Part shown: in pieces, positions 849 to 23,119 of the stretch | Layout: each line of letters starts with the position of its first letter | Numbering within the stretch: position 1 is the first letter of the stretch | Assembly (NCBI GenBank): GCA_003208875.1 | Contig: QCUR01000001.1 | Location: 32,001 to 96,000, forward strand | Length of the DNA: 64,000 bases | Direction: 5' to 3' | Source of the DNA: Prochlorococcus sp. AG-679-M23 | GTDB lineage: Bacteria; Cyanobacteriota; Cyanobacteriia; PCC-6307; Cyanobiaceae | Program-made: the position numbers and the translations under genes | The notes under the pieces: generated by a model | The model's input: the letters and a program-made list of their open reading frames with translations, nothing else | Told to the model about the DNA's origin: nothing | The model's database searches: none

Positions 849-980
849 AATAAAGATTATCTATGGAACTTTCGATAAGTCAATCAGTACTTATTTCTTT
901 TGTAAGATACTCAAACTAATCTTTACATCTCTATGAAAGTAAAGTAATAAATATTTTTTCTTAAGGTTCGTTGCCTACTA

Positions 981-1200
981 GGTTTCACGTGGGTTTCACG
1001 TGGCGGAATACGTGTTATAATATGTTCAGACCCATTGATATAACTGTCTTTTTTATTAACCTTTTTGGAGGGACTATTGAGTGGGAGTAACTAAAGAGGT
1101 ATAAACCTTGTCATAGTCTAAAAAACTCGGTTAAACGTGAGAATCTCTTATCCTATTTGCAATGGATCTCAACAACGAGGTTAAACGTAGGTTACACGTG
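981..1200 (+). repeat. att-like junction A: 11-bp repeats flanking a guaA 3'-end copy
   Basis: GGTTTCACGTG at 981 and 992; CCATTGATATAAC at 1032; core GGAGGGACTATTGAGTGGGAGTAA (GGTIEWE*) 1067-1090; AAACCTTGTCATAG 1103-1116; GGTTAAACGTG 1129, GGTTAAACGTA 1179, GGTTACACGTG 1190. Confidence 0.8.
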
Positions 1201-1263
1201 AGGGTAAAATCTCATCTCTATAGAGAAATCGTAGAGTTTTAAATTTCTCTACACCTTAATAAA

Positions 1264-1581
1264 TTAGTTAATTATTTTTTTAATTTTTTCTAAATTCCAT
1301 TTATCAAATATTAATTTCATTTCTCTTTCGTAGTATCTTACTTTTTTTGAGAAAGGTAGTTGTTGAATAATTATCCCAAAGGGAAATTTAAAAAAAGAAG
1401 AAACATAAACAATATAAAACTCGACAAATGAAGGTTTTGGTGGGAGAGGTAAATTTTTTAAATATGCCCAATCAATGCATGGTTTTAGTTGCTGATCACT
1501 AGCAGCAATATTTTTTCTACATCTCCAGTAAGAGAATAGATAAATGCCAATAAAAATCGGTAAAGGAAGAAGTCGTAACAT
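1264..1581 (-). CDS. Hypothetical protein with hydrophobic N-terminus
   Basis: 105-aa ORF with ATG start; no recognisable motif. Confidence 0.6.
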   Translation of the reverse strand: MLRLLPLPIFIGIYLFSYWRCRKNIAASDQQLKPCIDWAYLKNLPLPPKPSFVEFYIVYVSSFFKFPFGIIIQQLPFSKKVRYYEREMKLIFDKWNLEKIKKIIN

Positions 1582-1741
1582 TAAATATCAAGGATGATTT
1601 TTCTTCTCATTTACTCATATACCTGTTTGATAATAAATGGATAGTTTAGTTTTTATGGAAATTTTGCTTAAATGATTTTTAGAATTTTCAATTATTTTAT
1701 GCGATATCTCTATACAAATCTCCTAGATTTTTAAATCAAAA

Positions 1742-1951
1742 TCATTCAAAAAGTATTTCTTCAGGATTTCTGTATTGAATTAAACCTTCATATTCTGAAT
1801 CAACCTTTTTAAGATATTCTGCTACATGCTTATAACCTTGATCAAAAACAATTTCAATAACCAATTCAGCAAGTTTTTTGCCATTAATTAACAAAAGAGG
1901 ATATTTATCTTCAAGAATTTCAATCCTTTATCTGTTTTGTGAAAAGAAATA
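1742..1951 (-). pseudogene. C-terminal remnant of an Mrr-catalytic (MspJI/AspBHI-like) restriction endonuclease
   Basis: Minus frame reads YFFSQNR*RIEILEDKYPLLLINGKKLAELVIE...YEGLIQYRNPEEILFE*, resembling the EDxYPxxLxxGxxLAE...RPEEIL terminus of that family; in-frame stop at 1928-1930 and no N-terminus. Confidence 0.6.
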
Positions 1952-2000
1952 GTGTGTAAAAATCACACTGAATTGAAATCTTTTTCATTAGATTAAAAGA

Positions 2001-2070
2001 ATCAGAAACTCCTCACACACTAATTTCTGATCACTAAACGCCCCGATTCGAAAGAATTAGGGTGTTTTTT
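2001..2070 (+). ncRNA. Yfr1/Yfr10-like sRNA
   Basis: Conserved undecamer ACTCCTCACAC at 2008-2018 in hairpin ATCAGAAA/TTTCTGAT; -10-like TAGATT at 1989-1994; intrinsic terminator with T-run at 2037-2070. Confidence 0.8.
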
Positions 2071-2170
2071 AATGCAATTAAGTCTTTTAGGTCGTAACTG
2101 GTATATGTGACAATTAAGTATTATTACTCACCCCTTCCACGAAAAAGAAAGATATGTAATGAATATTTTT

Positions 2171-2267
2171 GTGTGTAGGAGAGGTTTTGCTGAAACAGTG
2201 GAAACAAGGAAACACTTGATTTAGTAAAACCAGGAAATGACCTCTATAAATAGGGATCTTTTTTTTT
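2171..2267 (+). ncRNA. yfr2: Yfr2-family (Cyano-1) sRNA
   Basis: 5' GTGTGTAGGAGAG; stem 2183-2194/2220-2231 enclosing two GGAAACA motifs (2200, 2208); terminator hairpin plus T-run. Confidence 0.85.
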
Positions 2268-2307
2268 GCCTAATTTTTTCGAACGAATACTTAAATTTAA
2301 ACAAAAT

Positions 2308-2331
2308 AAAGGGGGATTTGTTTGCCCCTTT
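2308..2331. terminator. Possible bidirectional terminator hairpin
   Basis: AAAGGGG...CCCCTTT inverted repeat. Confidence 0.45.
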
Positions 2332-2509
2332 CGATTCTTATGTAATCATTATCTAAAAAGTCGGTGAGTGCTACTTACTCCTGAATTATTTCTACTCCTG
2401 TTGAATGGGAAAATATAGTCGTGACAACCACAAAGCACTTCTATTCGAGTAAAAATACTCTATGAATTTTTAGTTAATAGGTAGAAAATAAAGATATATA
2501 GGAGGTTTT

Positions 2510-2692
2510 ATGAAACTATTTAATCAATTTAATATCCTTCCAAAATATTTAACGGCATTTAACTATGCAGGTTTAAATCTGAATGAAACTCCAAACGAAC
2601 TTGAGCAATGTCCTATAGAGTTTCAAACTTACTGGGATAAAGAATGTAGGGATAATCCAACTAATCAGAATTGTTTAATTTATTGCGACTGA
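2510..2692 (+). CDS. Small protein with CP12-like C-terminal cysteine pair
   Basis: Strong AGGAGG RBS; ends WDKECRDNPTNQNCLIYCD (C-x8-C-x-IY-x-D as in the CP12 C-terminus). Confidence 0.7.
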   Translation: MKLFNQFNILPKYLTAFNYAGLNLNETPNELEQCPIEFQTYWDKECRDNPTNQNCLIYCD

Positions 2693-2736
2693 GTTATTAA
2701 TTTTTATTATTTATCTAATAAATTTTTTTAAAAAGT

Positions 2737-2894
2737 GGTTTCACACGGGTTTCTCACGAGATAATATTTAAAATTATCCCTTGAGATACACTGCTATGAC
2801 TGTATTTTTAATTTTAATTATTGGCGGTAACATAGAGTGGGAATGAAAATAAGCTATAGACCTAGTTATAGTTAAAAAAAATAGGTTTCAAGTA
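2737..2894 (+). repeat. att-like junction B
   Basis: GGTTTCACACG 2737, GGTTTCTCACG 2748; CACTGCTATGAC 2789; core GGCGGTAACATAGAGTGGGAATGA (GGNIEWE*) 2823-2846; AGACCTAGTTATAG 2858-2871; GGTTTCAAGTA 2884. Confidence 0.75.
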
Positions 2895-3003
2895 GGTTTC
2901 AAGTAGGTTTCACTTAGAAAAATTTGTGTTATAATTAACTCAAAACCATTGCTATAACTAATTTTTTATTCACTTTTTTGGAGTGACTATTGAGTAGGAA
3001 TAA
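2895..3003 (+). repeat. att-like junction C (terminal, decayed guaA-end copy)
   Basis: GGTTTCAAGTA 2895, GGTTTCACTTA 2906; CCATTGCTATAAC 2946; core GGAGTGACTATTGAGTAGGAATAA (GVTIE*E*) 2980-3003; no repeats on its right side. Confidence 0.75.
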
Positions 3004-3047
3004 AAAATACTTTAATTTTTTATCTTTAACTTTTTTACAAAATTATT

Positions 3048-3761
3048 ATGGATGAAACCATTAAATTAAGTAGGTCTACTGTTGAAAAATATCTTAATTG
3101 CCCTAGATGTTGCGTTCTTGATAAAAAACATAAAATAAAACCTCCATCATTACCATTCACCTTAAATATTGCTGTAGATAATTTATGTAAAAATGAGTTT
3201 GATTATTATCGTGAAAGACAGGAATCTCATCCTTTATTTATTGAGCATAATATTGATGCTGTACCTTTTAAACATAAAGATATAGATATTTGGAGAAGTA
3301 ATTTTAAAGGAATAAGATATAAATCTACTGAACATAATTATGATTTTGGTGGTGCGGTCGATGATGTCTGGGAAAAAAAGAATGGAGAGTTAATTATTGT
3401 TGATGTAAAAGCAACATCTAGAAATAATTTTGATTGGTTTGAAACTTTCAATAAATATGATTATGCAAAAGCATATAAAAGACAATTAGAAATGTATCAG
3501 TGGTTATTTAGAAAAAATGGTTTCAAAGTTGCAGATGAAGCCTATCTTCTTTATTTTAACGGAAAAAAGAATGAGAAATTTTTTAATAATCAGTTAAAAT
3601 TCGATGTGCATTTTATTAAGTTAAAGTGTTCTGCGACATGGGTAGAAGGCAAAGTTATTGAAACAGTAAAACTGCTCAGATCTAATATGTTCCCTTCACC
3701 ATCTTTTAAATGTGAATATTGTAATTATTTAAAAAAGCGTTGGCAGTTGTCACAAAATTAA
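3048..3761 (+). CDS. PD-(D/E)XK nuclease, RecB/Cas4-like
   Basis: GAVDD...IIVDVK...QLEMY nuclease motifs; N-terminal CPRC and C-terminal CEYC. Confidence 0.85.
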   Translation: MDETIKLSRSTVEKYLNCPRCCVLDKKHKIKPPSLPFTLNIAVDNLCKNEFDYYRERQESHPLFIEHNIDAVPFKHKDIDIWRSNFKGIRYKSTEHNYDFGGAVDDVWEKKNGELIIVDVKATSRNNFDWFETFNKYDYAKAYKRQLEMYQWLFRKNGFKVADEAYLLYFNGKKNEKFFNNQLKFDVHFIKLKCSATWVEGKVIETVKLLRSNMFPSPSFKCEYCNYLKKRWQLSQN

Positions 3762-3850
3762 TTAATCACATTGAAAAATAATATTATTGGATAATTCTGG
3801 AAAAATTTTTAAATAAAGATAATCTTTAAGTAGACAATAAATTTTAGATT

Positions 3851-4459
3851 TTGGTTAAACCGAAAAGTCCTGATAATAAAATTAGCAATCATTTACAACA
3901 AGATGTTGTAAAAATTGCAGGCAAAACAATCTTTATTAATCCATTTTTGTATTGGAGAAGGTTTGATGAAAATACCAATAGATGGTTAAGAGAACCAGGA
4001 CAGATGTCAGAAGAGCAAATCCAGTCAAACAGAAATCGGTTTTATCCTGAAATTGACTGGGCTGATTTAAGTCAAGATCAAAAGCTCGTAAAAGATGCAA
4101 GTATAGAAATGTTTCTGAAGACTTTGGAGCTTATAAGCACATTTCATCCTCAGCTTAACTCTGGACAACTATTAGAAGTTGAGAGGAAAATGGCAATTAC
4201 AAAAAAGCTACCTTTTGAAAGGTGGGTAACAAAGTCTTTTGCTAAAAAAGCTAGAGCTGAAGAAAATGAGAAAAGGAAATTTCAAAGAGATAGATTTATC
4301 AGAAGTTGGAAGGAATGGCTAAGCCTTGAAAATACTCAACAAGCTCTACTACCTATAATTATCATTGTATTTGTCTCAGCATTTATTGGTTGGTCTTCAG
4401 GTGTTTCAAAAAACAGTTGTAATCCTTACTTTGAACAAAATTTAGATCAGTCAATATAA
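3851..4459 (+). CDS. Conserved hypothetical protein with C-terminal TM helix
   Basis: 202-aa ORF; hydrophobic segment LLPIIIIVFVSAFIGW. Confidence 0.75.
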   Translation: MVKPKSPDNKISNHLQQDVVKIAGKTIFINPFLYWRRFDENTNRWLREPGQMSEEQIQSNRNRFYPEIDWADLSQDQKLVKDASIEMFLKTLELISTFHPQLNSGQLLEVERKMAITKKLPFERWVTKSFAKKARAEENEKRKFQRDRFIRSWKEWLSLENTQQALLPIIIIVFVSAFIGWSSGVSKNSCNPYFEQNLDQSI

Positions 4460-4564
4460 ACCTTTTATTAAAATAGAATAGAATATTATTTTGATGATTT
4501 GTGCTTTATTATTTGGGGTAATATAAAAGAAGTTTAGTTTTTAAGTTAACTTATTATTTGATTT

Positions 4565-4717
4565 ATGGATAACAAAGAGCAAGAAAAAGATATATCAAGT
4601 TTAGAATTTGATAAAGGTACGACTCGCAATGATTATAAATTTTTAGTGCAAAAATTAAAAAATATAAAGGAGATTATTACTTTGTTAGAAAACAAGTTTT
4701 TGCAGAAAGAGATGTAA
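4565..4717 (+). CDS. Small hypothetical protein (50 aa)
   Basis: ATG..TAA open frame MDNKEQEKDISSLEFDKG...; ends 4 nt before mrdA. Confidence 0.55.
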   Translation: MDNKEQEKDISSLEFDKGTTRNDYKFLVQKLKNIKEIITLLENKFLQKEM

Positions 4718-4721
4718 ATTT

Positions 4722-6512
4722 TTGAAAAATAGTAACTTCAATAATAAGTTCCCCTCTTTGATTAGGCAGCCTTTGGTTTTCTATTTAATTACTACTTTTA
4801 CTTTTTTATTAATATTAATTAGATTAATTTTTCTTCAATTATTAAATCATGAGACTTATAAAAAAATGTCTGATGAAAATAGAATTAGGCTAATTTCTAC
4901 TCAACCAATTAGAGGCAGGATACTAGATAAGAATGGATTAATATTGGCAGATAGCCGTTTTAAGTACTCTTTAATAATTAAACCTCAATACGTCAGCAAA
5001 GAAGCATGGCAGCAATATAAATCGAAGATTTCGAAATTATTCAATATTTCATCTGATTCACTTCAAAAGAAATATTCTGATGGTTTAAAAAATAAAAATT
5101 TTTCAATAACTCTATTAGATGATTTAAAAGTTGATCAAGTTATCAAATTTAAAGAAAATGAAAATATCTTAAATGGCTTAGAGATTTCAACAAAAATGAT
5201 TAGAAATTATCCTTATAAAACAGTTGCTTCTCATGTGATTGGTTATACCCAACCCATTACAGATTCTGAATTTAATATTTTGTCAAAAAAGGGTTATAAA
5301 TTAAATGATTTAATAGGAAGAACTGGAATTGAGTTTGTTTATGAAGATCATATAAGAGGAGAATGGGGAGGAGAAATGATTGAAGTGAACTCTTCCGGCA
5401 CTTTTACAAAATCTTTAGGTATTAAACCATCAAAACAAGGGAAAGACGTTGAATTGACAATTGATTTGAATTTACAATTAATCGCCGAAGAAGTACTTAA
5501 AGATAAAAATGGAGGAGCAATAATAGTTATGGATCCAAGAGATGGTGCTATAAGAGCAATGGCTAGTAAACCAACTTTTGACTTGAATTTTTTTTCAAAA
5601 GAATTTAAACCAGAAAAAGAATATAATGCTCTATTTAATTCTCCTGCTAAACCATTATTTAATAGAGCTTTAAATGCATATGATCCAGGAAGTGTTTGGA
5701 AAATTGTAACTGCCATAGCTGGTTTAGAAAGTGGAAGGTTTCCTCCTGAAACTTTTTTAGAAACTAAACCTTGTATTACATATGGAAGTCAATGTTTTAG
5801 AGAACATAATGACTTAGGGTTCGGAACAATAGGTTATGAAGATGCATTGCGAGTTTCAAGTAATACTTTTTTTTATCAAATTGGCTATGGCGTAGGTGTA
5901 GATGAAATTTACAATGTTTCTAAAAAGCTTGGCTTTGCCGCACTATCTGGAATCGAAATTTCCGAACAAGAAAATGAAGGTTTAGTGGCAAGTAGTCAAT
6001 GGGCTAAAAAAGGGAGAGGCTGGGGGGAACCAGGAAGAACGCCTTGGGTTCCAGAGGATATCGCTAGTATGTCTATCGGTCAATTTGTTGTCCAAGTTAC
6101 CCCTATTCAAATAGCTCGTGCATATGCCGCAATCGCGAATGGTGGCTATTTAGTCACTCCTCATTTATCTAAAAAAGAAGATCAAATATTAATAAATCAA
6201 AAGCGTATAAAAATTGATATTGATCCAAATAATCTTCAGTTAGTGAAAAACGGATTAAGAAAAGTAGTTGAATCTGGAACAGGAGTCTCTATTAATTATG
6301 GTGTATCTAATCTTCCTCCAATTTCAGGCAAAACTGGTACTGCTGAAGATGGAGAAGGAGGTTCAGATCATGCATGGTTTGTTTGCTTTACTCCTTCTGA
6401 TAAAAGTGAGTTGTTAATAGTTGCTTTTGCACAAAATACGCCTGGAGGAGGATCTGTTCATGCACTACCTATGGCTAGAGAAATTTTAAAAGTTTGGAAT
6501 GAAAATAAATAA
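4722..6512 (+). CDS. mrdA: Penicillin-binding protein 2
   Basis: N-terminal TM, RGRILDKNG, SVWK (SxxK), SSN (SxN), KTG motifs. Confidence 0.92.
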   Translation: MKNSNFNNKFPSLIRQPLVFYLITTFTFLLILIRLIFLQLLNHETYKKMSDENRIRLISTQPIRGRILDKNGLILADSRFKYSLIIKPQYVSKEAWQQYKSKISKLFNISSDSLQKKYSDGLKNKNFSITLLDDLKVDQVIKFKENENILNGLEISTKMIRNYPYKTVASHVIGYTQPITDSEFNILSKKGYKLNDLIGRTGIEFVYEDHIRGEWGGEMIEVNSSGTFTKSLGIKPSKQGKDVELTIDLNLQLIAEEVLKDKNGGAIIVMDPRDGAIRAMASKPTFDLNFFSKEFKPEKEYNALFNSPAKPLFNRALNAYDPGSVWKIVTAIAGLESGRFPPETFLETKPCITYGSQCFREHNDLGFGTIGYEDALRVSSNTFFYQIGYGVGVDEIYNVSKKLGFAALSGIEISEQENEGLVASSQWAKKGRGWGEPGRTPWVPEDIASMSIGQFVVQVTPIQIARAYAAIANGGYLVTPHLSKKEDQILINQKRIKIDIDPNNLQLVKNGLRKVVESGTGVSINYGVSNLPPISGKTGTAEDGEGGSDHAWFVCFTPSDKSELLIVAFAQNTPGGGSVHALPMAREILKVWNENK

Positions 6513-6544: not shown

Positions 6545-7069
6545 TTATATTTTCAATTTTTTCATTTGTGAAAGTCGTTGAATTATATCTTCTATTGTTT
6601 TTATATCCACTGGTTTACTAAATGAAGATAACATTTGTCTACCCAAGACTTGACTTCCTAAATGTACTAATTGAATTCGTAATGAGGTTAATAACTCTAA
6701 TCCAACTCCACCAGAAAAAGTTGCAATTGCAATTGGCTGACCATTAAATAAATTTCTAAAATCATCTCCTGATACGGATAGCCATGCTATAAGATTAGAA
6801 AGAATTGGAGGTATCGAACCGTTATATTCAGGAGCACATATAATCCATTTTTCTGTAGCAAAAAGCTTTTCTTTTATTTCAATTATTTCGACAGGAATAT
6901 TTTCTTTTGTATGAATTCGTGGATTGAATAAAGGTATATCAAAAGTAGTTAGATCCAAAATTTCAGAATTGAATTTTAGTTCATTACTTTTTTTTTGAAA
7001 TTTTTTTGCAAGTTCTAGATTTTTTCCACAACTTGCTGAAATGATTATTAGATTTTTTGAATCAGGCAT
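6545..7069 (-). CDS. NADPH-dependent FMN reductase
   Basis: PEYNGSIPPILSN flavodoxin-like motif; downstream of the flavodiiron pair. Confidence 0.88.
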   Translation of the reverse strand: MPDSKNLIIISASCGKNLELAKKFQKKSNELKFNSEILDLTTFDIPLFNPRIHTKENIPVEIIEIKEKLFATEKWIICAPEYNGSIPPILSNLIAWLSVSGDDFRNLFNGQPIAIATFSGGVGLELLTSLRIQLVHLGSQVLGRQMLSSFSKPVDIKTIEDIIQRLSQMKKLKI

Positions 7070-7087
7070 AAATAAAAATAATTTGGT

Positions 7088-8890
7088 TTAGTAGTTAGCT
7101 CCACTCTTACGGTGATGAACGGCAGTTAGACTATCGGATTTTAATATATTCCCGTGCAAAACCTCAGCATATATTACCCAATGATCTCCGCATTCCATTC
7201 TTTCTTTTACAGAGGCATCCAACCACGCTAATGACTTAGGAATTATTACTTGATCATTAGGTGTGAATTCAATATCTAAACCTTCAAATCGATCTTCCCC
7301 TGGTGAGAAAGGTTTTGTAAACCTTTTTAAAGGTTCCCTGAAATCTTTTTCGCAAAGAATATTTAAGGCGAAAGAGTCCCCTTTTTGAAGAAGTGATTCT
7401 ACTGATCTATCTTTTGCTACTGAAATACTCAATCCAGGAGGAGAAAAACTTGCTTGGCTTACCCAAGATGCAAGCATAGCTCCTTTTACATTATTTTCAT
7501 CTTTTCCTTTTGATGCAGTTAGAACACACAGTGAACCAAGTACTCTTCCTAAAGCTTGCAATGTTGGATCAGTTTTACTGGATATCATTCCGGTATCTGA
7601 TTTTCTGATATTTTGTTTTGCTTTTTTTAAAATTTTTCTCCCAAAATGAGTACCAATTTCTTCTAGTTCTTTAATCTTTGGTTTATTAGGACTAAATTTT
7701 ATTCTTATTGGATCAAAACTAAATTTAAATCCACCATCTTTTAATTTTGTCTCAAGCAAATCTATTGCTTCTCCGCTCCATCCAAAACTACCGAAGATGC
7801 CTACTGGTTTATCTCTATTACCCTCTGATAACAAAGTTCCTAGAGCACTTACTATTGGAGTTGGGGCATGTCCCCCTAAAGTAGGTGATCCGATTAGATA
7901 TCCATCAGCTTTTTGAATAGATTTTATAAGTTCATCATTAGATGTAAATTCACAATTAATACTTTCAACTTCTACTGAAGTTCTATTTACACCTTTCGCT
8001 AATGCATCACCTATTGAGGCTGTATTGCCATAAGCACTAGCGTATATCAAGACGATTTTAGGATTGTTTGTTGAAAGATTTTCTCCCCATCTAATGTAGT
8101 CATTTAAAAAGCTTTTTAAGCTGTACTCAATTGCTGGACCGTGCAGTGGAGCAATAGTTTTAATGTCTAATTCAGAAATTTTTTCAGATATTGATACGAT
8201 TTGATTAGACATTGGTGCCATAAGACAATCATAAAAATGTTTTCTATCAATTTCTGTACTCATTCTGTTGCTTTCTGACCATTCTTCAGAGGCTAAATGT
8301 GCAGAAAATATTTTTTCACTTAAAAGAATTTCTTGATTCTCTTCATATATGATTAATCCACCCGGCCACCGGGCAGTTGGTACAGGAATTAGTTTTAATG
8401 CAATATTTTCTAGTTCTAGATAAAGTTCTTTTCTTACGATGTTAATTTCAGGTAATTCTCGCTCAATAAAAGTTTTTGAATTTGGATTTTTTTGATTCCA
8501 AAGTTCACTAATAAGCTTAAAACCAGGATTCGAACATGTGAGAGTTAAGTTACTGAATTGGACACTGATTGACTTTATAGTTTCAATAATTTTAGGATTT
8601 ACATGACCAGTAATTATGTTAATTTTGTTGAATTTGAACTCATCATGAAAATTTGAAATTACTTCATTAATTAATTTTGAATATTCTTTTTCAGGTGGAT
8701 GAACAATGAAAAAATCATTATTACTTATGATTAAAAAGGTATTAAATGAAGTTCCTTTCTCAAGATTAAATTCGAGCTCAAACCTTTCTTTGTTTTGATC
8801 AAGAAATCTGATGCAAATAAAATTTTCAGTTATTTCATATATCGATAAGTTTTTATTTTCTAAAAGTGAACTTGTATTAATTACTGACAT
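7088..8890 (-). CDS. flv1: Flavodiiron (diflavin) flavoprotein, Flv1-type
   Basis: Beta-lactamase-like, flavodoxin (YASAYGNT) and flavin reductase domains; non-canonical di-iron ligands. Confidence 0.85.
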   Translation of the reverse strand: MSVINTSSLLENKNLSIYEITENFICIRFLDQNKERFELEFNLEKGTSFNTFLIISNNDFFIVHPPEKEYSKLINEVISNFHDEFKFNKINIITGHVNPKIIETIKSISVQFSNLTLTCSNPGFKLISELWNQKNPNSKTFIERELPEINIVRKELYLELENIALKLIPVPTARWPGGLIIYEENQEILLSEKIFSAHLASEEWSESNRMSTEIDRKHFYDCLMAPMSNQIVSISEKISELDIKTIAPLHGPAIEYSLKSFLNDYIRWGENLSTNNPKIVLIYASAYGNTASIGDALAKGVNRTSVEVESINCEFTSNDELIKSIQKADGYLIGSPTLGGHAPTPIVSALGTLLSEGNRDKPVGIFGSFGWSGEAIDLLETKLKDGGFKFSFDPIRIKFSPNKPKIKELEEIGTHFGRKILKKAKQNIRKSDTGMISSKTDPTLQALGRVLGSLCVLTASKGKDENNVKGAMLASWVSQASFSPPGLSISVAKDRSVESLLQKGDSFALNILCEKDFREPLKRFTKPFSPGEDRFEGLDIEFTPNDQVIIPKSLAWLDASVKERMECGDHWVIYAEVLHGNILKSDSLTAVHHRKSGANY

Positions 8891-8907
8891 CTTTAAAGAT
8901 TTATTTT

Positions 8908-10683
8908 TTAGTAGTGATTAGCAACTTTCCTATGATGAACGGCTGTTTTACAGGATAAATCAGAAACGCTCCCATTTTTAACTATACCGTAAATAATCCA
9001 ATGATCTGGAGTTTCTAATCGTGAACTTACTTTACAATCTAAAAATGCGAGAGAATCAGAAAGTACTGGTCCACCATTTGCGATATTGTTCACTACATCT
9101 ACATCAGCAAATCTATCTGCTCCAGGTGCAAATCTTTTTAAAAAATGTCTAAACATTTTTTGATAGTTATCTTCTCGTAAGATATTAACTACAAAACCTT
9201 CTCCAACTTGCATATAAGATTCAATAGCTCTATCTTTTGCTACTGCAACTGTAATGCCTGGCGGACTGAAACTTGCCTGACTGACCCAGCTTGCTACCAT
9301 CGCGCTTTGTCTAAAAGTCGAACCTTCTCCCTGGCTAGCTGTAACTACATATAAACCCCCACTTAATCTCCCTAAAGCTTTATCCAGATTTGAATCAAGG
9401 CTTTTCATTGAAGCAATATTTTTCTTCTTATTAATTAATTGTCCCAAGTCGGTTCCAGCTTCTTCAAATTGTTGATAGATAATAGGATCTGGAATATTTT
9501 TAACTCTTAGAGGTGAAAAGGCTTCTTTTTGTCCTAATTCTCTCAACTTGCTTGCTAATGAGTCTATCGGTTCATCATTTCCTCCAAAAGCATCGTAAAC
9601 TGCCGTAAATTGTTTAGGCTTTAATGCGGCAAAAAGAGTGCCAAAAGACTCTTTTAATTCATTATCAGACTTAACTGGCCAGGTTGGGATTACTACGGCT
9701 TTAGATTCTGAAATTAAACCTGTTAATTCCTGAGAATCTGAAGATCTTAAATCAATTAATTGAACCTGTGCATCTGCCTTACTTATTCCGTGAGATATAG
9801 CTTGACTTAATCGATCACAATATCCATAATCACTGATGTAGCAAACAGATACAAATTCATTGCCTTTACTCTTGTTACTACTCCACTCTGAATACTTTTC
9901 TTTCCAAAAATTTACTTGATTGTGAAGTAATGGCCCATGACCCACAGCTATAGTTTTAAGTCTAGGTAACTTATCTATTCGTTTGATAGCTTGTAGAACA
10001 CTTCTTGCGTTCGGGCCCATAAGGCAATCGTAATAAAAACGAAAATCTTCATAAATTTCTTTTTGATCATTATCAAAAAATTCATCAGAGCAATAATGTA
10101 ATCCAAAAGCATCGCATGTGTATAAAACATTCGTACCGTGATCGTAGGAGAAAATGGTATCTGGCCAATGTAAATTTGGCGCACTTATAAATTCAATATT
10201 ATGATTTACTCCACTTGTGAGGTTAGTTCCAAGATCTAAATATTGTCCACTTTTTACTTCTAAACTTTTAAATGGAATATGTATTTGATCCTCAATAAAT
10301 TTAAGCGCTAATTTTGAACCAACTACTATTATTTGTGGATTAAGAGTTAAAAGGTTTCCAATTAAACCTGAGTGGTCTGGCTCTGTATGACTTGTAATTA
10401 AATAATCAATTTCTTTGGGATTTACTTCTCTAAGTAATTGCTCAAACCATAGTTTTTCAAATTTAGCGTGGCTTGTATCAATTATTGCTAGTTTTTGGCC
10501 CTTAATGATAAAACTATTATAAGTAGTTCCATTTCTTAATCCAAATTCAATATCAAATCTACTTCGATCCCAGTCAAGAGATCTAATTGCAATTGTGTCA
10601 TCTGCAAAAACTTTCTGTTGCACAGATAATTTTTGCTCAACTTTATTCATCTCTGAAGTACTTGTTTTTGCAGAAGTTATCAT
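8908..10683 (-). CDS. flv3: Flavodiiron (diflavin) flavoprotein, Flv3-type
   Basis: Canonical HTEPDH, HWPD, CDAFG, GHG ligands; ATG at 10683 preferred as start. Confidence 0.88.
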   Translation of the reverse strand: MITSAKTSTSEMNKVEQKLSVQQKVFADDTIAIRSLDWDRSRFDIEFGLRNGTTYNSFIIKGQKLAIIDTSHAKFEKLWFEQLLREVNPKEIDYLITSHTEPDHSGLIGNLLTLNPQIIVVGSKLALKFIEDQIHIPFKSLEVKSGQYLDLGTNLTSGVNHNIEFISAPNLHWPDTIFSYDHGTNVLYTCDAFGLHYCSDEFFDNDQKEIYEDFRFYYDCLMGPNARSVLQAIKRIDKLPRLKTIAVGHGPLLHNQVNFWKEKYSEWSSNKSKGNEFVSVCYISDYGYCDRLSQAISHGISKADAQVQLIDLRSSDSQELTGLISESKAVVIPTWPVKSDNELKESFGTLFAALKPKQFTAVYDAFGGNDEPIDSLASKLRELGQKEAFSPLRVKNIPDPIIYQQFEEAGTDLGQLINKKKNIASMKSLDSNLDKALGRLSGGLYVVTASQGEGSTFRQSAMVASWVSQASFSPPGITVAVAKDRAIESYMQVGEGFVVNILREDNYQKMFRHFLKRFAPGADRFADVDVVNNIANGGPVLSDSLAFLDCKVSSRLETPDHWIIYGIVKNGSVSDLSCKTAVHHRKVANHY

Positions 10684-10797
10684 ACTATTATTCTTTTGTA
10701 TTATGACTTTAGTTAAATACAATATAAATCCGCGTGAATCTAAGTGTGGAATTACCGAATTTGTTTTTTAATCACTTCATTATTGATACTGTTATAA

Positions 10798-13458
10798 ATG
10801 AAATCTCAAACTAAAAAAACTCCAATTACAGGTGATGAGATAAGAAAAGAATTTTTAAATTTTTACCATGAAAAATTACATAAAATTATTCCAAGTGCAT
10901 CTTTAATTCCTGATGATCCTACAGTTATGCTCACTATTGCTGGAATGCTGCCTTTTAAGCCAGTTTTTTTAGGATTGAAAGAAAGGCCATCAAAAAGAGC
11001 CACATCTAGTCAAAAGTGTATAAGAACAAACGATATTGAAAATGTTGGAGTTACTGCTCGACATCATACCTTCTTCGAGATGCTTGGTAATTTTTCTTTT
11101 GGAGATTATTTTAAGAAAGAGGCTATTGAGTGGGCTTGGGAATTAGTTACTGATATTTATGGACTTTCTGCTGAGAATATTATAGTGAGCGTGTTTCATG
11201 AAGATGATGATTCGGTAAAGATTTGGAAAGAAGATATCGGGATTCATCCACAAAGGATAATTAAGCTTGGAGAAAAAGATAATTTCTGGTCTTCAGGGAA
11301 AACAGGTCCTTGCGGACCATGTTCAGAATTATATTATGACTTTAAACCAGAAAAAGGTCTTCAGAATATTGATTTAGAAGATGGTGATCGGTTTATAGAA
11401 TTTTATAATCTTGTATTTATGCAATATAACCGTGACCCTGATGGTCAATTGACAGATTTGAAATACAAAAATATTGATACTGGAATGGGGCTTGAAAGAA
11501 TGGCTCAAATATTGCAAAAGAAGAAGAATAATTACGAAACAGATTTGATTTTTCCAATTATTCAAAAAGCTTCTGAGATCTCCAAAATTGATTATTATTC
11601 TTCAGATGAAAGAACTAAAATCTCTTTAAAAATTATTGGAGATCATATAAGAGCAGTTATACATTTAATTTCTGATGGGGTAGTAGCAAGTAATCTTGGA
11701 AGGGGATACATTTTAAGAAGACTGATTCGAAGAATGGTTAGACATGGAAGATTGTTAGGCTTAAAAAATGAATTTTCATCGAAACTTGCAAGTGTAGGTA
11801 TTAAATTAATGCAAGAGAATTATCCAGATTTAAAAAATAATTATGACCATATATTGAGTGAGATAAAAATTGAAGAAATAAGATTTAGAGAAACTCTTGA
11901 TAGAGGAGAGAAATTACTAGATGAATTGATTTCATCTGGTCAGAAAATGATTACTGGGTTTAAAGCATTTGAACTTTATGATACTTATGGCTTTCCATTA
12001 GAACTAACAGAAGAAATTGCTCAAGAAAACAATATTGGTGTTGATGTTAAGGGTTTTGAAAAAGAAATGTCTGCACAAAAAGAAAGGGCCAAAGCTGCTT
12101 CTCAAATCATTGATTTGACATTAGAGGGTTCATTAGAACGCGAAATAGACTTATTTGATAACACTCTTTTTAATGGTTATGATTCACTCGATTCAGATGC
12201 AGAAATTAAGGGTATATTTTTGGAGTCAACCTTGGTTAAGCAAGCAAGTGAAGGACAGAAAGTTTTAATTGTCCTTGATCAGACTTCTTTCTATGGAGAA
12301 TCTGGAGGTCAAGTTGGTGATATTGGAAAGATATTCTCGAATGATCTAGAAGTTTTAGTTGATAACGTCATACGCAAGAAAAACGTTTTTCTGCATTATG
12401 GAATAGTTAAAAAAGGAATATTAAGTCTGGGACAAAAAGTTAAAACTAAAGTAAATGATTTGGCTAGAGCTAAGGCTGCGGCAAATCATACTGCTACTCA
12501 TTTACTACAATCTGCTCTCAAAGTAGTTGTTAATAAAAGCGTTGGACAAAAAGGCTCATTAGTCGCATTTAATAAATTACGATTTGATTTCAATTCTTCT
12601 CAACCTATTACAAAAGATCAAATTTTCAAAGTTGAGACTTTAGTTAATTCTTGGATTTTAGAAAATCATTCTCTTGATATTAAAAACATGGCCAAAAGTG
12701 AGGCTCTCGAGAGAGGCGCAGTGGCTATGTTTGGAGAGAAATATGATGATGTAGTAAGAGTTGTTGATGTGCCATGTGTTTCGATGGAACTATGCGGTGG
12801 TACACATGTAAAAACAACATCTGAATTAGGTTGTTTTAAAATAATTAGTGAAGAAGGAATTTCAGCGGGCGTAAGAAGAATCGAAGCATTGTCAGGGCAA
12901 TCAGCCTTTGAATACTTTAGTGATAAAAATTCTCTCGTAAGTCAACTAAGTGATTTGTTAAAAGCAAATCCTAATCAACTCCTGGATAGGGTTAATTCTT
13001 TGCAATCAGAGTTGATTAATAAAAATAAAGAAATACAAAAAATGAAGGATGAAATTGCTTATTTTAAATACTCTTCGCTAGGTTCTTCTGCAAATAAAAT
13101 TGGATCTTTTTCGCTGATTATTAGTCAACTTGATGGACTAGATGGAAATTCTCTACAATCTGCAGCATTAGATTTAACTTCTAAATTGGGAGATAAGTCG
13201 GTTGTGATTCTTGGAGGAATACCAGATAAGGAAAATAGAAAATTGTTATTTGTTGTCTCTTTTGGGGAAGACTTAGTTAAAAGAGGTATGCATGCAGGGA
13301 AATTAATTAATGATATTTCACGTATTTGCTCTGGGGGCGGGGGAGGTAAACCTAACTTTGCACAGGCAGGTGCCAAAGATATTGATAAATTAAATGATGC
13401 TTTGGAATATGCAAGAAAAGATTTGAGGACAAAACTCCTTAGTTATTCTGATAAGTAA
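10798..13458 (+). CDS. alaS: Alanine--tRNA ligase
   Basis: [40 protein letters not shown] motifs. Confidence 0.98.
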
Positions 13459-15389
13459 CTACTTTTTCTTAAACTGGTTTCTATTTGGTCAATTAACTTT
13501 CGTGCTTCTTGAATAGTCAAAGTTTTATTATTGATAGCAGATTCAGTATTGACTCTTATTGATTCAACTAAATCATCTGAACTGTAATCTAATAACTCTA
13601 AAATTTCTGATTTGCTATTTTCTTTAATAATGTTTTTAATCTTATAAGAATTATCATCATTTATATCAATATGAATAACATTTGTATTTCCAAATAAATT
13701 ATGGAAATTTCCTAATGCTTCTTGATATGCTCCTGCCATAAAGATTCCTATTAGATAATCATTATTTTTTTCTGGAGGATGTAAATTTAAAAGTGATTTG
13801 ATCTTTCCATTGTCAATAAAACTATTCAGCTTGCCATCAGAATCACAAGTTAAATCCGCAAAGTTTCCCTTACAAAAGGGCTCTTCTAAGTGTCTATGAA
13901 TTGGAATAATTGGAAAAACTTGATTAATTGCCCAGGTATCAGGAATAGATTTAAAAACTGATAAATTTGCGTAATATGTTGATGCAAGCGTGTCGGTTAT
14001 TTCAGATAAATCTGGATGGTTAATTTCATCACTCTCCAATTGATTTGCAATCTCTTTTGCACAAGCCCATGTAAGTTCTTCCGCATACGCACGTTCTTCT
14101 AAACAAATAAATCCCAATCTAAAAGCGACTAAGCAATCCTCTTTAAATTTTTTAGCGTCATTCCATAATTCTATTATTTCAGATAAATCTTCTTTTTTAT
14201 ATCTAAGATTTTTTAGCTGATTAAGGGTTTCTATCAGATTTGTGATGATTAATGATTGTTTTTTGTTATCGGATACTTTGACTTGGGAGTTGACATGGCT
14301 TGTCCCTAAAATATTGAAAATTAAAACTGAACAATGACTGATTATCGCTCTACCACTTTCTGAGATTATGATTGGATGTTGAATATTATTTACTTCACAT
14401 GAATCTTTTACTGTTGCAATAACGTCATTTGCGTAGTTTTGAAGAGAATAATTTGTCGAAGTATTGGAGGACGTTTTAGTTCCATCGAAGTCTATTCCTA
14501 AGCCGCCTCCAACATCTATATATTTCATTGGTGCGCCTAACTTAGATAATTCAACAAATATTTGACTAGCTTCTTGTAATGCATCTTTAATTACTTTTAT
14601 ATCACTGATTTGGCTTCCAACATGGAAATGCAGCAACTTCATTTCATTTATTAGATTTGCTTCTTTGAGCTCTTTTATTGTTAGCATTATTTCTGGAATT
14701 GATAATCCAAATTTGGAATTATCTCCCACTGATTTACCCCACCTTCCACTACTCTTACTTGATAATTTTGATCTAATTCCAAGTATGGGGGTTGCTTTGA
14801 GATTTTTTACAGCTTCTATAATTCTTTGAACTTCATCTCTTTGCTCAATTACTATAATTGGCTGTTTACCAAGTTTTCTCGCTAATATTGCGCTCTCAAT
14901 ATACTTTTTATCTTTATATCCATTACAAATTAAAAGTGATTTTTGATTTTCAAGGATTGATAATCCAATTAATAATTCTGATTTACTTCCTACTTCTAAA
15001 CCAAAATTCCAAGGATCCCCATATTCAATGATTTTTTCCAAGACATTTTTTTGCTGATTACATTTAATAGGAAAAACTCCTTGATAAATATTTTTGTAGT
15101 TATAAGTTTCTATAGCTTGGCAGAAGGCATTATTTAATTCCGTAATTCGGTCTTTTAAAATATCGTTGAATCTTATTATTAAGGGAGTATTGATTTCTCT
15201 ACTTTTAAATTCCTTAACAAGTTTAAAAAGATCGACTTTTTTTTTGGATTTTCTATTTGGGCTTATCGATATATTGCCATCTGAATTAATTGAAAAATAT
15301 TTTTCTCCCCATTGATCAATGCCATATGTAGAAATACTATCTTCTATAGTCCAATTTTTATTTAATTTTTTTGTATCAAAATCGGTCAA
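13443..15389 (-). CDS. speA: Biosynthetic arginine decarboxylase
   Basis: [30 protein letters not shown] motifs. Confidence 0.96.
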
Positions 15390-19330: not shown

Positions 19331-20569
19331 TTGATTCAGCTTGAGACTAATTGGTCATTTGTGAGCGATGGTGAAGAAAAACCTGATGGTTTTTCTTTCG
19401 CAGGGATTGCTGCGGGATTAAAGAATTCGAATAAGAAAGACTTGGCTTTAATATTAGCCCCAGAGAATAGCATTTGTAGTGGCTTGTTTACACAATCAAT
19501 AGTTCGAGCATCCTGTGTAGATATTTGTGAACAAAGGATTAAAAAGTCTTCAGGTCTTATAAGAGCAATATTAATAAACTCTGGACAAGCAAATGCCTGT
19601 ACAGGTGATTATGGTATTCAACATACTTTGTGTGCTACGAAGGAGGTCTCACAATTATTAGGAATAAATGAAGAAGAAGTTTTAATGTGCTCAACGGGTG
19701 TAATTGGTATACCCATTCAAATAAAAAATTTAATTGATAATTTACCTAAATTAGTCAAGGAGTTAAAAACAAATAGTTTTCAGAATGCTGCAGAAGCTAT
19801 TTTAACTACTGATTTAGTTGACAAAAAAATAACTATAGAAACATTTATTGAAGGGAGAAAGGTAAAGATATCTGGTTTTGCAAAAGGATCAGGAATGATT
19901 TATCCAAATATGGCTACTATGTTGGCTTTTGTTACATGTGATGTTGGTGTTGATAAAGAACTTTGGGACAAGATGATTTCTATTGCTGTTAAAAAGTCTT
20001 TTAACGCTATTTCGGTGGATGGAGAGACAAGTACTAATGATGCCTTTATAGGAATAAATTCAGGGAAAAAAATTGATAAGAAATTTTTATCAAAGATTCA
20101 AACAGGTATCGATATTGTATGCCAAAGTTTGGCAAAAAATATCGCTAGAGATGGAGAAGGCGCAAATTGCTTGCTAGAGGTTTTGGTTGAGGGAGCAAAG
20201 AATAATTCAGATGCAATTAAGATAGCTAAATCTATATGTAATTCTTCACTGGTAAAAACTGCAATTCATGGTTGTGATCCAAATTGGGGCAGAATTATTT
20301 CAGCTGCTGGTAACTCTGGAATTGATTTTAAATTAGATGTCGTTGATTTATATATTGGAGACTTTCAGATTTTGGAAAAGGGTAAGTTAAATAAATATGA
20401 TTCCAAAAAAGTTGCCAATTACATAAGTACAAAAATGAATGGTAAATATTTAGTTGAGGATATAGTACGTATAGCTCTTAATCTTAATTCTGGTTCAGAA
20501 AAAGGAACTGCTTGGGGTTGTGATTTGTCTAAAAAGTACGTTGAAATAAATAGCGAGTATACGACCTAA
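19331..20569 (+). CDS. argJ: Bifunctional ornithine acetyltransferase/N-acetylglutamate synthase
   Basis: NSGQANACTG, KGSGMIYPNMATML, DGETSTND, DPNWGR; ends VEINSEYTT. Confidence 0.97.
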   Translation: MIQLETNWSFVSDGEEKPDGFSFAGIAAGLKNSNKKDLALILAPENSICSGLFTQSIVRASCVDICEQRIKKSSGLIRAILINSGQANACTGDYGIQHTLCATKEVSQLLGINEEEVLMCSTGVIGIPIQIKNLIDNLPKLVKELKTNSFQNAAEAILTTDLVDKKITIETFIEGRKVKISGFAKGSGMIYPNMATMLAFVTCDVGVDKELWDKMISIAVKKSFNAISVDGETSTNDAFIGINSGKKIDKKFLSKIQTGIDIVCQSLAKNIARDGEGANCLLEVLVEGAKNNSDAIKIAKSICNSSLVKTAIHGCDPNWGRIISAAGNSGIDFKLDVVDLYIGDFQILEKGKLNKYDSKKVANYISTKMNGKYLVEDIVRIALNLNSGSEKGTAWGCDLSKKYVEINSEYTT

Positions 20570-20649
20570 CCCCAAATCCCCTCTGGCACAGTTGATTACA
20601 GAGATATCATAAAGCAGATACCACTAAAATACCACTAAATTTTCATCTA

Positions 20650-21876
20650 TCAATATTTAAAGTTATTTTTTCTGAGGTCTCTATTTAGTGAATTGAAATC
20701 AGTTTTATTTGATGCCAAATCCTTTGACTGCACACTTCCTAGTGCGACTTTCTCTAATCTTTCTAATCTTGCTAAAAGTTGTTTGTTTGTTTCTTCAAGA
20801 GAAATAATTTGTGTCTCAAATTCTTTTTTCTCCTTCATACTAATAAGCGTAGGTTTTACTGGTTTGCCTAATTGCCAGATAAATCCTGCTCTAGCAGAAA
20901 ACTGATCTTCAAAATCACCTGGATAATCTTGACCAGGCATTGTCATTGAAGCAGCGTAATTAATTGATAGTTTTTCATTAACTTTTGAAGCGCAACCTCC
21001 AGAAAAAGCAAAATCTCCTCCATGTGTTCCTGTTCCAAAACCACATGCAAGAGTTGTATCAGTAGGAACTGTTGGTAAACCTGTTAAAGCAGCACTCAAT
21101 GCTCCAACATTATTGATTGATTGTTCTACATCTCTACCATTTATTAATAATTTAGTTCCATTTGTATAGTCAATAGGAATTGGATTTCCTGCAGCATCTT
21201 TTGCATAAACTTTTTGTCTACCATTCTCCTCTTTTGTAATCCAAGAGTTTTCACCTATATGAAGTTCATTCCCTACATATTTAACAAGACTTTTACCGGT
21301 TGACCCTCCCTGACTTATTCCATCATTATCAATTCTAAGTAATTCATCAGTTCCTTCTCCTCCCAATGAAACGAATTTCGTATCTGAGGAATCATCACAG
21401 TCACTGTCTGTTGAGTCACATTTTTTCTCAATAGTATCGTTTAATTTCTGTATCACACCCATATTGATTGGAGTTGCCCCGCTTGGTAATCCTGTTACAT
21501 CAATGTATCCTTCAAATGCGTTTGTATCGATATCATATTTCCGATATCTTTTTCCTTGACCGCCCCCACGATCCCCTTCAAGAAAATAAATTTTTCCATT
21601 ACGCTCATCAACAGTAAAGTCATTAGATGTGAAATTATTAGTACTCACATCTGGAAATATATCTTGTTTTAGTAAAGTTACTGCACCATTTGAAGAAAGT
21701 TTATATAAATTTGAAGTTGAATCTCCTCCATCATTTACTTTAGTAGGATCTTCAGCAACGAAGAATCCTAAATCAGTGGTATTTGTGGAAACTTCACCTG
21801 CTAATGAAGTAAAAGGCGATAAAAGTAATGTAGAAGTAAAAAGAGAACTAACAAGTTTTTTTGAAAAGTTTTTCAT
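20650..21876 (-). CDS. Secreted protein with YadA-like membrane-anchor domain (putative adhesin)
   Basis: Signal peptide MKNFSKKLVSSLFTSTLLLSPFTSLA; GALSAALTGLP...CGFGTGTHGGDFAFSGG...ARAGFIW anchor-like region, then a coiled-coil tail. Confidence 0.7.
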   Translation of the reverse strand: MKNFSKKLVSSLFTSTLLLSPFTSLAGEVSTNTTDLGFFVAEDPTKVNDGGDSTSNLYKLSSNGAVTLLKQDIFPDVSTNNFTSNDFTVDERNGKIYFLEGDRGGGQGKRYRKYDIDTNAFEGYIDVTGLPSGATPINMGVIQKLNDTIEKKCDSTDSDCDDSSDTKFVSLGGEGTDELLRIDNDGISQGGSTGKSLVKYVGNELHIGENSWITKEENGRQKVYAKDAAGNPIPIDYTNGTKLLINGRDVEQSINNVGALSAALTGLPTVPTDTTLACGFGTGTHGGDFAFSGGCASKVNEKLSINYAASMTMPGQDYPGDFEDQFSARAGFIWQLGKPVKPTLISMKEKKEFETQIISLEETNKQLLARLERLEKVALGSVQSKDLASNKTDFNSLNRDLRKNNFKY

Positions 21877-22249
21877 GAGACACAACTTTTTTAAAAAGTG
21901 ATATTGACTTATTAATAATTTAAGTGTAAATACTTAATGATTTAACTATTGCTTAATATTTGTTATTTTTCCAGAAAAATAACTTTTTATGTTCTTACAT
22001 AAGATATTTAATAATTATCAAATTGAGGCAGAAAAAAGTTAAATTAAATAGCAAGTTAATCTTTTAATTAATACTTAAAAAATAAATACTAAACTTAAAA
22101 AATATTTTTAATTGAAACTTTCCATACCGGTTTTATAACACCTATGTAGTGGTATCAATGGATTTCACTTGTAAAAAAAGTTTTGTACCACTAAGATACC
22201 ACCAAATTTCCGAGTAAAAACCTTGTCATAGCAATGCTTTTCAAGGTTG

Positions 22250-22279
22250 GTTGAAATCAATAGCGAATACACTACTTAA
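22250..22279 (+). repeat. Duplicated argJ 3' end (attR-like)
   Basis: GTTGAAATCAATAGCGAATACACTACTTAA encodes VEINSEYTT*; 25/30 identical to 20540-20569. Confidence 0.9.
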
Positions 22280-22514
22280 TTTTTAGCAGCTCAATTGGTA
22301 AATATTCGTTTATATAAAGAAAGAGGATTGAAATAGTTCCTATTACAGAACCAATAAAACTTCCAATAAAATAATTTAATATCTTGGGTTGTTTGATTTG
22401 TGAGTTTTCTCCATTTTCTATTTCAAAAGCAGGAGAATCAACTACTTTTAGGCGCTGATTAGTTGTTGGTTGTTTAAGTTGTTGGTGTCGGATGAGTGCT
22501 TCGAAATCAGGCAT
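22272..22514 (-). CDS. Small protein with C-terminal TM helix, downstream of and overlapping the ParA gene
   Basis: ATG at 22514, MPDFEALIRHQQLK...YFIGSFIGSVIGTISILFLYI. Confidence 0.6.
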   Translation of the reverse strand: MPDFEALIRHQQLKQPTTNQRLKVVDSPAFEIENGENSQIKQPKILNYFIGSFIGSVIGTISILFLYINEYLPIELLKIK

Positions 22515-23119
22515 GGAATTTGAGATGCAATAGAACAATAGGCAGACCAGCCCGTCATTCGACGAGGATCTGATCTTCCTAAATCGTCTACAGCTTCAAA
22601 TACTGCATTTCCAGAGGCTTCTGCTTTATCAAATGCTGAAAGTAAAGGAATAAATGTATCAAAAACGTGTAAACCGAAATTTTCTAACGCTCCCTTAGCT
22701 TGTTGAGCTGCTTTTTGTTGTCTAAAATCTACTTTTACAATTACAACTGCATGGTTAACTTTTAAAGTATTTAATAAGCTGGCTAATTCAACAGTTAATT
22801 CAACAGACCTCGCTTTTGCGGTTGTGGGTAGAATTACTAAATCTGATCCGTATGCAAGATGTTTAAGTTCTTCTGTATCACTGCTTGCTTGCCCATCTGT
22901 AATAACAATTTCCGAGGATCTTGAGGCTTTTGCGGCTGAACTAACTGGAAACACGGGAAATGGAAGGTTTCCTCTGGATGAGTAGGCTAATGCTGATCTG
23001 TTTTTATCAGCATCAACTATACATACCTTTTTGCCTTCAGAATGCCATACACTTGCAAGGTGAATACTTGTACAAGTTTTAGCAACCCCTCCTTTTTGAC
23101 CGCAAACAGTAATAAACAA
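22448..23119 (-). CDS. Orphan ParA/MinD-family ATPase
   Basis: Deviant Walker A QKGGVAKT, VDADKNRS, ITDG. Confidence 0.9.
   Translation of the reverse strand: MFITVCGQKGGVAKTCTSIHLASVWHSEGKKVCIVDADKNRSALAYSSRGNLPFPVFPVSSAAKASRSSEIVITDGQASSDTEELKHLAYGSDLVILPTTAKARSVELTVELASLLNTLKVNHAVVIVKVDFRQQKAAQQAKGALENFGLHVFDTFIPLLSAFDKAEASGNAVFEAVDDLGRSDPRRMTGWSAYCSIASQIPCLISKHSSDTNNLNNQQLISA

Follow-up and report, generated by a model that had tools for sequence, protein, structure and literature searches.

Phage 21 and e14 integrate into icd and bring with them a replacement 3' end that differs from the original at synonymous sites. In streptococci, cis-mobilizable elements (CIMEs) and tandem accretion are reportedly found at the attachment (att) sites of integrative and conjugative elements (ICEs) and integrative and mobilizable elements (IMEs), at the 3' ends of fda, guaA and rpsI. 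For Prochlorococcus, the most abundant phototroph, the movement of flexible genes is partly understood, and the accessible text of the tycheposon preprint (10.1101/2020.12.28.424599) names seven tRNA and transfer-messenger RNA (tmRNA) genes as targets. Here we describe a 1.7-kb insert at the 3' end of argJ in a 64,000-nucleotide stretch of Prochlorococcus sp. AG-679-M23 (assembly GCA_003208875.1, contig QCUR01000001.1, positions 32,001 to 96,000 of the forward strand), hereafter the window; the genome that contains it is designated G000. Our analysis indicates that the insert is very probably an integrase-less cassette, produced by site-specific recombination at an attB formed by the argJ end and carried out by a lambda-like tyrosine integrase of a clade designated A2.

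The duplicated argJ end and its alleles

The argJ gene of the window (19331..20569, + strand; 412 amino acids; Pfam ArgJ, E = 1.8e-131) ends in a 30-mer (20540..20569, +) that recurs on the same strand at 22250..22279 with five mismatches in 30 positions (ATA/ATC, GAG/GAA, TAT/TAC, ACG/ACT and ACC/ACT). As the first-pass annotation of this DNA had proposed, all five fall at third codon positions and both copies encode VEINSEYTT*; the similarity ends at the 5' edge of the 30-mer. The tandem 11-bp repeats that had been reported just inside both ends of the insert were likewise recovered, at 20617/20628 on the left and 22184/22195 on the right, together with a single inverted copy at 22147-22156, and a repeat-family search of the window returned 20619-20642 and 22186-22209 as 92% identical. 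The 30-mer (at most five mismatches) and the 24-mer (at most two mismatches) each occurred in only these two places, whether the window or the complete 1.65-Mb genome was searched, and 100 dinucleotide shuffles of the window gave a mean of 0.0 and a maximum of 0 matches for either.

Both copies of the att core (AATAGCGAATA) are hybrid. The left one (attL) has a 5' part of the argJ type (GTTGAAATA...) and a 3' part from the element (…GAGTATACGACCTAA), and the right one (attR) has a 5' part from the element (…ATC) and a chromosomal 3' part (GAATACACTACTTAA) that is the same in the empty allele L050. The pattern recurred in the other alleles. Among the leftmost copies, 33 of 38 begin with the argJ 9-mer and the other five are one base off, and two of the 38 end in the chromosomal ACTACTTAA; the rightmost copies end in ACTACTTAA in 35 of 39 cases and begin with the argJ 9-mer in none of the 39. 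Leftmost copies are thus variable at their end and rightmost copies at their start, which in sequence terms is the pattern of attL (B-O-P') and attR (P-O-B') in site-specific recombination. The first-pass annotation had taken the right copy for the original chromosomal end and the element for the source of a replacement C-terminus. The second part of that claim stands, as the last codons and stop of argJ derive from the insert, and the first must be amended, neither copy being purely original. Because the left copy joins the 5' part of argJ to the 3' part of the element and the right copy the 5' part of the element to the chromosome, the element contributes to argJ no more than its stop and the few codons before it.

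The exchange would lie within the invariant centre AATAG[C/T]GA[A/G]TA, and if all the enzymes cut alike it may fall near the GA at positions 16-17 of the 30-mer. That placement would follow from the differences within the window combined with those copies that have a recoded core, with AAC TCG for AAT AGC and the Asn-Ser pair kept (for example L047, L061 and L072, and in L059 the right copy).

A DNA search of 36 genomes of the same genus gave a match in 33, of which 14 had an empty site, 17 carried inserts of about 0.15-9 kb and two were cut by contig ends; in an empty allele the two flanks overlap by the 30-mer. The site was empty in the two closest relatives, G008 and G015, whose flanks are 97% identical to those of the window, so that the insert was gained or lost recently. 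An empty-allele query matched 245 of 285 genomes of the genus, and among the matches listed 89 cross the junction uninterrupted, the rest being split or partial. The argJ target is occupied in roughly half or more of the sampled genomes. The set of alleles retrieved comprised 37 occupied, one partial and two empty ones (L049 and L050). The empty alleles have one core copy each; an occupied allele is always bounded by a copy on either side, and arrays contain three to four. These comparisons bear out three expectations of the first-pass annotation: empty alleles with argJ abutting a small transmembrane-protein gene exist in other strains, other genomes hold alternative cargo and integrases at the site, and core copies and arm repeats are kept at the insert edges there.

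Contigs from four marine metagenome runs had depths of 450-6500 on the flanks versus 0-430 on the insert. Loose contig ends fell exactly at 20569 and 22250, and some of these represent argJ joined to the right copy. One contig (X1; depth 5.2, side 24), in which 20642 is followed by seven other letters and then by 22217, is too weak to count as an arm-only allele.

Integrases and arm sites at the argJ end

An integrase was absent from 36 of the 38 complete occupied alleles, including the insert of the window. The two integrase-bearing alleles are L064, a 4.7-kb unit with a 457-residue integrase right after attL and a resolvase, and L059, whose 9-kb insert has a 527-residue integrase at its right end. 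The two proteins are 22% identical over their full length, and each represents a clade tied to the argJ site, A1 (L064 type) and A2 (L059 type).

Clade A1 formed 118 clusters in a large protein collection, mostly from contigs of 2-12 kb. In a scan of species-representative genomes, all four Prochlorococcus loci (L073-L076) have the integrase starting 130-180 bp past the argJ stop, and in L163 and L165 the integrase begins at the same distance from argJ; the A1 loci include hosts whose argJ ends in INADYTT or INADYHT. A tRNA scan of L073-L077 found none. The sequence of contig L077 recurs every 6,612 bp and includes an attP encoding NADYTT*. The record, a circular or tandem A1 element of 6.6 kb, is labelled as a metagenome-assembled genome (MAG) of a Methanobacteriota archaeon, a label that a free element probably received through a binning error. 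The A1 elements also code for a ParB_N-methylase fusion and for a small tyrosine recombinase or a resolvase. Their arms carry GTGTGATTAT-type repeats, to which the 'type B' arms of many integrase-less cassettes are similar. In L075, two A1 integrase genes (7001-8389 and 13031-14374) lie in one array after argJ, each with a ParB-methylase fusion or a small recombinase. Scans of IMG/VR returned no match to the core pattern and no A1 relatives.

Clade A2 is rare in the sampled genomes, with a hit to its protein query in one of the 285 genomes of the genus at E ≤ 1e-15, and a metagenome scan yielded 80 loci. In 43 of these 80, the integrase is preceded at 140-200 bp by a pseudo-argJ end (...IN[SA][ED]YTT*) on the opposite strand; such an end was seen by eye in three further loci (L081, L119 and L120), and many of the remaining ones break off within the integrase. 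L096 and L097 extend as far as a true argJ, so that their elements measure 6.9 and 5.2 kb. L107 has identical att sites at 94 and 7282, both at contig ends, as in a circular or tandem element of 7.2 kb.

The A2 elements also revealed the anatomy of the attP arms. In 29 A2 loci, a 7-mer word occurs in pairs at -128/-117 from the core 30-mer, then at -78/-67 or -67/-56, and, where sequence is present, at +47/+58. The word varies with the integrase clade (TGTTCAC, TGCTTAC, TAGTCAC, TGCTCAC, GTGTCAA, GCTTACG and GGTAACA). The window has TACCAC pairs at -66/-55 and +48/+59, matching the offsets of the A2 elements. On the left, the P' arm (20570..20642, +) holds the tandem repeats 20617-20627 and 20628-20638, and on the right the P arm (22184..22249, +) holds 22184-22194 and 22195-22205, with a motif CCTTGTCATAGCAATG (22221-22236, +) between repeats and core; related motifs stand between repeats and core in other arms too. 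TACCAC arms were found in eight of the argJ loci retrieved from other genomes and in a single metagenome locus, in no case next to the start of an integrase. Among all retrieved loci, TACCAC pairs stood in 13 rows representing 11 distinct loci, among them L031 and L035 as well as L001, L002 and L011, which overlap the window. A palindrome of the form aaatccattgcagggcaatggattt stands just past the core in several left arms (L045, L034, L036, L062 and L063), with compensating changes between alleles, and could be a protein site or a hairpin.

In a structural model of the A2 integrase (predicted local distance difference test score, pLDDT, 75), residues 92-491 matched XerH (Z 17.7), Tn1549 Int (Z 17.1) and lambda Int (Z 16.6). 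Ahead of the core-binding domain, residues 9-86 form an additional four-strand sheet plus a helix, at the place that the arm-binding domain takes in lambda-type enzymes; lambda Int alignments extend to residues 53 or 58 only at a root-mean-square deviation of about 10.

Together, these features support the following route. The 1.7-kb insert very probably arose from site-specific recombination between attB, the last codons of argJ, and an attP bearing a pseudo-argJ end. The reaction would have been catalyzed by a member of the argJ-specific clade A2, whose tyrosine integrases are large and lambda-like. Such an enzyme may bind the core and the pairs of 11-bp arm sites on both sides, the latter putatively through its extra N-terminal domain. 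As the end of the element restores the reading frame of argJ, only synonymous differences are seen. Repeated integration at one core builds the arrays. The insert of the window, retaining both att sites and the inner arm pairs, is non-autonomous, with a single cargo gene; it may descend from a full element that lost its other parts, or may be moved in trans by a cognate integrase that reads TACCAC. Gain and loss of cassettes are fast relative to the divergence of the core genome.

Origin of the insert, cargo and related hotspots

Several observations weigh against this integrase-mediated origin. The insert itself encodes no integrase in its open reading frame (ORF) list or by Pfam, and none related to A1 or A2 was found in G000, its complement being a core 386-residue recombinase and a 189-residue fragment. 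Neither the 285 genomes of the genus nor the 80 metagenome loci sampled contained an integrase with TACCAC arm sites, and the metagenome contigs showed no excised circle for any integrase-less cassette. The outer arm pair at -128/-117 is absent from the insert. The closest copy of the cassette (L055) is only 82% identical at the DNA level and therefore gives no sign of recent transfer. In the model, the structural matches of the A2 protein start at residue 92, so that its N-terminal domain would be a putative arm-binding domain. Lastly, the window and L059 bracket the exchange to about 2 nucleotides if a single cut site is assumed, narrower than a normal overlap region; cut sites would then differ between clades, or later changes blur the picture.

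Some of these points would also fit an inert scar of a decayed element, spread or lost only through homologous recombination between the flanks or deletion between the repeats. The prevalence of integrase-less alleles, the missing outer arm pair, the lack of a cognate TACCAC integrase in the sampled loci and the distance to the nearest copy are all compatible with such a scar, and the accessible text of the tycheposon preprint (10.1101/2020.12.28.424599) also views most island material as left-behind DNA. However, many cassettes without an integrase, belonging to several arm types, retain both inner arm pairs and both cores at exact offsets, and one right arm is shared by cassettes with different cargo (22015-22249 of the window matches the right end of L053 at 89.5% over 235 bp). 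In addition, the insert of L044 consists of arms only (about 185 bp, without cargo), and within arrays an internal core may have arms of one type to its left and right (L037 at 7198). We therefore regard an inert scar as a rather unlikely explanation.

Much less probable still is capture by the resident host recombinase, the conserved 386-residue protein, in the manner of integrons or of Xer/dif. Arrays of integrase-less cassettes do look like integron arrays, and a core enzyme would be expected in every genome; in G000 its gene lies between hemH and cobO. Yet this gene is not adjacent to the site, its product matches A1 weakly (about 100 C-terminal residues, 29% identity, pairwise E = 6e-4) and sits on a very long branch in the integrase tree, and the arm words co-vary with the element-borne integrase clades and not with the host. 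Neither was an attC-like hairpin defined, and the cargo gene has its own upstream region of 260-370 bp. The site lies about 54-64 kb into three complete records (G004, G015 and G024), which is far from the terminus only on the assumption that these records begin near the origin; on this position, with the same assumption, and on the distance of the host recombinase from A1 and A2, the dif/Xer idea was set aside. Finally, although short AT-rich repeats are common in a genome of 31% guanine-cytosine (GC) content, a chance likeness, an assembly artefact or an island exchanged by homologous recombination only has next to no probability and is refuted by the uniqueness of both repeats in the genome with no match in 100 shuffles, by the same structure across dozens of independent assemblies, and by the association of this core with integrases and with circular attP forms.

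Within the preferred reading, an integrated cassette, the insert carries one gene, a 411-residue ORF (20650..21885, - strand; start more likely the ATG at 21876) for a secreted protein with a YadA-like membrane-anchor domain (Pfam YadA_anchor, 22.8 bits against a cut-off of 22.7, E = 1e-4) and a coiled-coil tail. Upstream of it lies an AT-rich region (21886..22146; GC about 0.20-0.24), followed by the single inverted arm-repeat copy (22147..22156, -). No primase, helicase or polymerase module was found in a Pfam search of the insert. YadA-anchor proteins are the commonest cargo across the cassettes, with 17 Pfam-supported cases (the window plus 16 others at 18.8-37.6 bits). Elsewhere the cargo is an Mrr/ResIII helicase, an EcoRII-C/Dcm/Vsr set, an HNH nuclease, PD-(D/E)XK-trypsin-TPR proteins, LemA/DUF3137, a PEBP protein, a thiamine-binding protein or a glycosyltransferase, and in one allele (L034) a 297-residue DnaB_C protein. 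The YadA-anchor cargo, together with the restriction and nuclease genes of other cassettes, points to variation in the cell surface and in defence. A second copy of the anchor part of the cargo gene is present elsewhere in G000 (C4:121083-121530; 84% DNA identity).

The flanks are conserved. To the right, outside the insert, stands the small transmembrane-protein gene (22272..22538, -), which has no Pfam family and whose stop codon lies inside the right 30-mer copy; this detail of the first-pass annotation was confirmed from the ORF list. In empty alleles the 3' end of this gene overlaps argJ by 8 bp (in L049, argJ ends at 670 and the transmembrane ORF spans 663-905). A ParA/CbiA-type ATPase gene (22448..23119, -; Pfam CbiA, E = 9.7e-13) adjoins every allele, and coaE lies before argJ. 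The window also holds Yfr10, Cyano-1 and a cyanobacterial tmRNA (Rfam), in keeping with its origin in a marine picocyanobacterium of low GC.

Relatives of the argJ integrases occupy other sites. A profile of A2 detected 14 of the 285 genomes of the genus at E ≤ 1e-6, most of them with the integrase at genes other than argJ. Related integrases lie directly downstream of a flavoprotein gene (flv; eight loci in eight genomes, one broken), trmD (two loci, L173 and L175), guaA (one) and ylqD (one, L174; YlqD-family gene). The flavoprotein target corresponds to 8908-10722 (-) of the window, where the site at its 3' end (8890-8910) is empty. No tRNA was found near L173-L176, the trmD, guaA and ylqD contexts to which that scan was confined. 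A quick maximum-likelihood tree grouped the integrases by target (A2 100, A1 100, flv 99 and trmD 100 in the Shimodaira-Hasegawa-like approximate likelihood-ratio test, SH-aLRT).

The first-pass annotation had drawn a parallel with the guaA locus and had suggested a different integrase there, and both points held. L176 has a 454-residue integrase directly after guaA, with GGTTTCCCGTG-type tandem repeats like those at 975-1202 of the window; its arm matches the repeats and spacer at 975-1250, and the protein falls outside both argJ clades in the tree. A full-text literature search linking Prochlorococcus, guaA and an integrase found no report.

In the window, a hotspot downstream of guaA spans 850-4700 (G000 C1:24304-36700), guaA itself lying 9 kb before the window. 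Pseudo-guaA ends (…ACTATTGAGTGGGAGTAA) occur near 1063-1088, 2828-2850 and 2980-3003, each flanked by tandem 11-bp repeats of the GGTTTCACGTG type, and Yfr10 and Cyano-1 lie inside the hotspot. Modules of about 400 bp at 1253-1663 and 2283-2722 (a 105-residue ORF and a 60-residue Cys-rich ORF) recur at argJ sites (L031, L034, L041, L043, L047, L057 and L065) at 79-94% identity, in either orientation and with differing arms. Since these modules sit within cassettes of different arms, cargo would shuffle between hotspots by a route other than the att sites. At the tRNA-Pro(tgg) gene (G000 C3:117523-118855), a tandem 11-bp pair of the GTGCCCA type lies about 50 bp past the full tRNA, with a second pair 1 kb on and then a partial tRNA. 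A similar pair, of CCAAACT repeats, stands beside a repeated gene end at G000 C11:10609 and 13422.

A tentative extension of the cassette reading is that Prochlorococcus and related picocyanobacteria run one cassette-exchange system docking at the 3' ends of housekeeping genes (argJ, guaA, the flavoprotein gene, trmD and ylqD). Rare transient elements could carry the integrases, and the abundant integrase-less single-gene cassettes could be moved in trans, forming an integron-like pool of surface and defence genes with no resident integrase. The 11-bp word would then act as an 'address' that diversifies with the clade, and continuing pick-up and transfer would account for the exact arm geometry that integrase-less cassettes keep.

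Comparison with known systems

With the lambda-type heterobivalent integrases, the argJ system would share the fold (Z 16.6 to lambda Int and 17.1 to Tn1549 Int) and, in the A2 model, an extra N-terminal domain. It also has in common with them an attP of about 250 bp, in which repeated sites flank a short core at set distances on each arm, and hybrid attL and attR. In contrast to those enzymes, the argJ-site integrases have 450-570 residues and weak Pfam Phage_integrase scores (17-42 bits), and their arm sites are strict 11-bp tandem pairs at which binding is putative. The arrays of mostly single-gene cassettes at one chromosomal site are reminiscent of integrons. However, no intI or attI adjoins the site, which is flanked by argJ, the small transmembrane-protein gene and the ParA-like gene; moreover, what borders a cassette is a copy of a coding-gene end accompanied by arm repeats in duplex form, unlike a folded attC, and the cargo gene has an upstream region of its own.

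As in phage 21 and e14, the element carries a substitute gene end with silent differences, so that the target gene, argJ or icd, stays intact. The two cases differ in scale, with about 7 codons replaced at argJ against about 50, and in the nature of the elements, those at argJ being small, non-phage and mostly integrase-less. The streptococcal CIMEs are said to be non-autonomous, att-bounded units free of recombination genes that form arrays at the 3' end of a housekeeping gene, whether or not an integrase-bearing element stands next to them, and the argJ cassettes resemble them in this. The latter belong to another phylum and another integrase clade, are mostly single-gene cassettes, and occur in roughly half or more of genomes.

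The tycheposons, in their accessible description (10.1101/2020.12.28.424599), share with the argJ cassettes the host genus, site-specific tyrosine integrases, and tandem integrations split by partial copies of the target, and their islands consist mostly of integrase-less material, as at argJ. They differ in the target, which here is the coding end of argJ and none of the seven named tRNA and tmRNA genes, and in gene content, the A1 elements having a ParB-methylase fusion and a small recombinase in place of primase or helicase modules. The terms argJ, guaA and 'protein-coding' do not occur in the main text of the preprint, supplements aside. The first-pass annotation did not know argJ as a described integration target, in agreement with that main text and with full-text literature searches, which found no link between argJ and an integrase or att site. 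As far as these texts go, the 3' end of argJ is a previously undescribed attB. It adds a protein-coding target to the tRNA and tmRNA targets named in the accessible description, two cognate integrase clades that reach hosts of higher GC (INADYTT type), and an attP anatomy of a core with 11-bp arm pairs at fixed offsets. The same layout at the tRNA-Pro island would link argJ-type sites to the tRNA islands of the preprint and is a hint that their integrases may belong to the tycheposon clade. With sister clades at the ends of guaA, flv, trmD and ylqD, the small variable 'islets' beside core genes may share an origin with the large tRNA islands.

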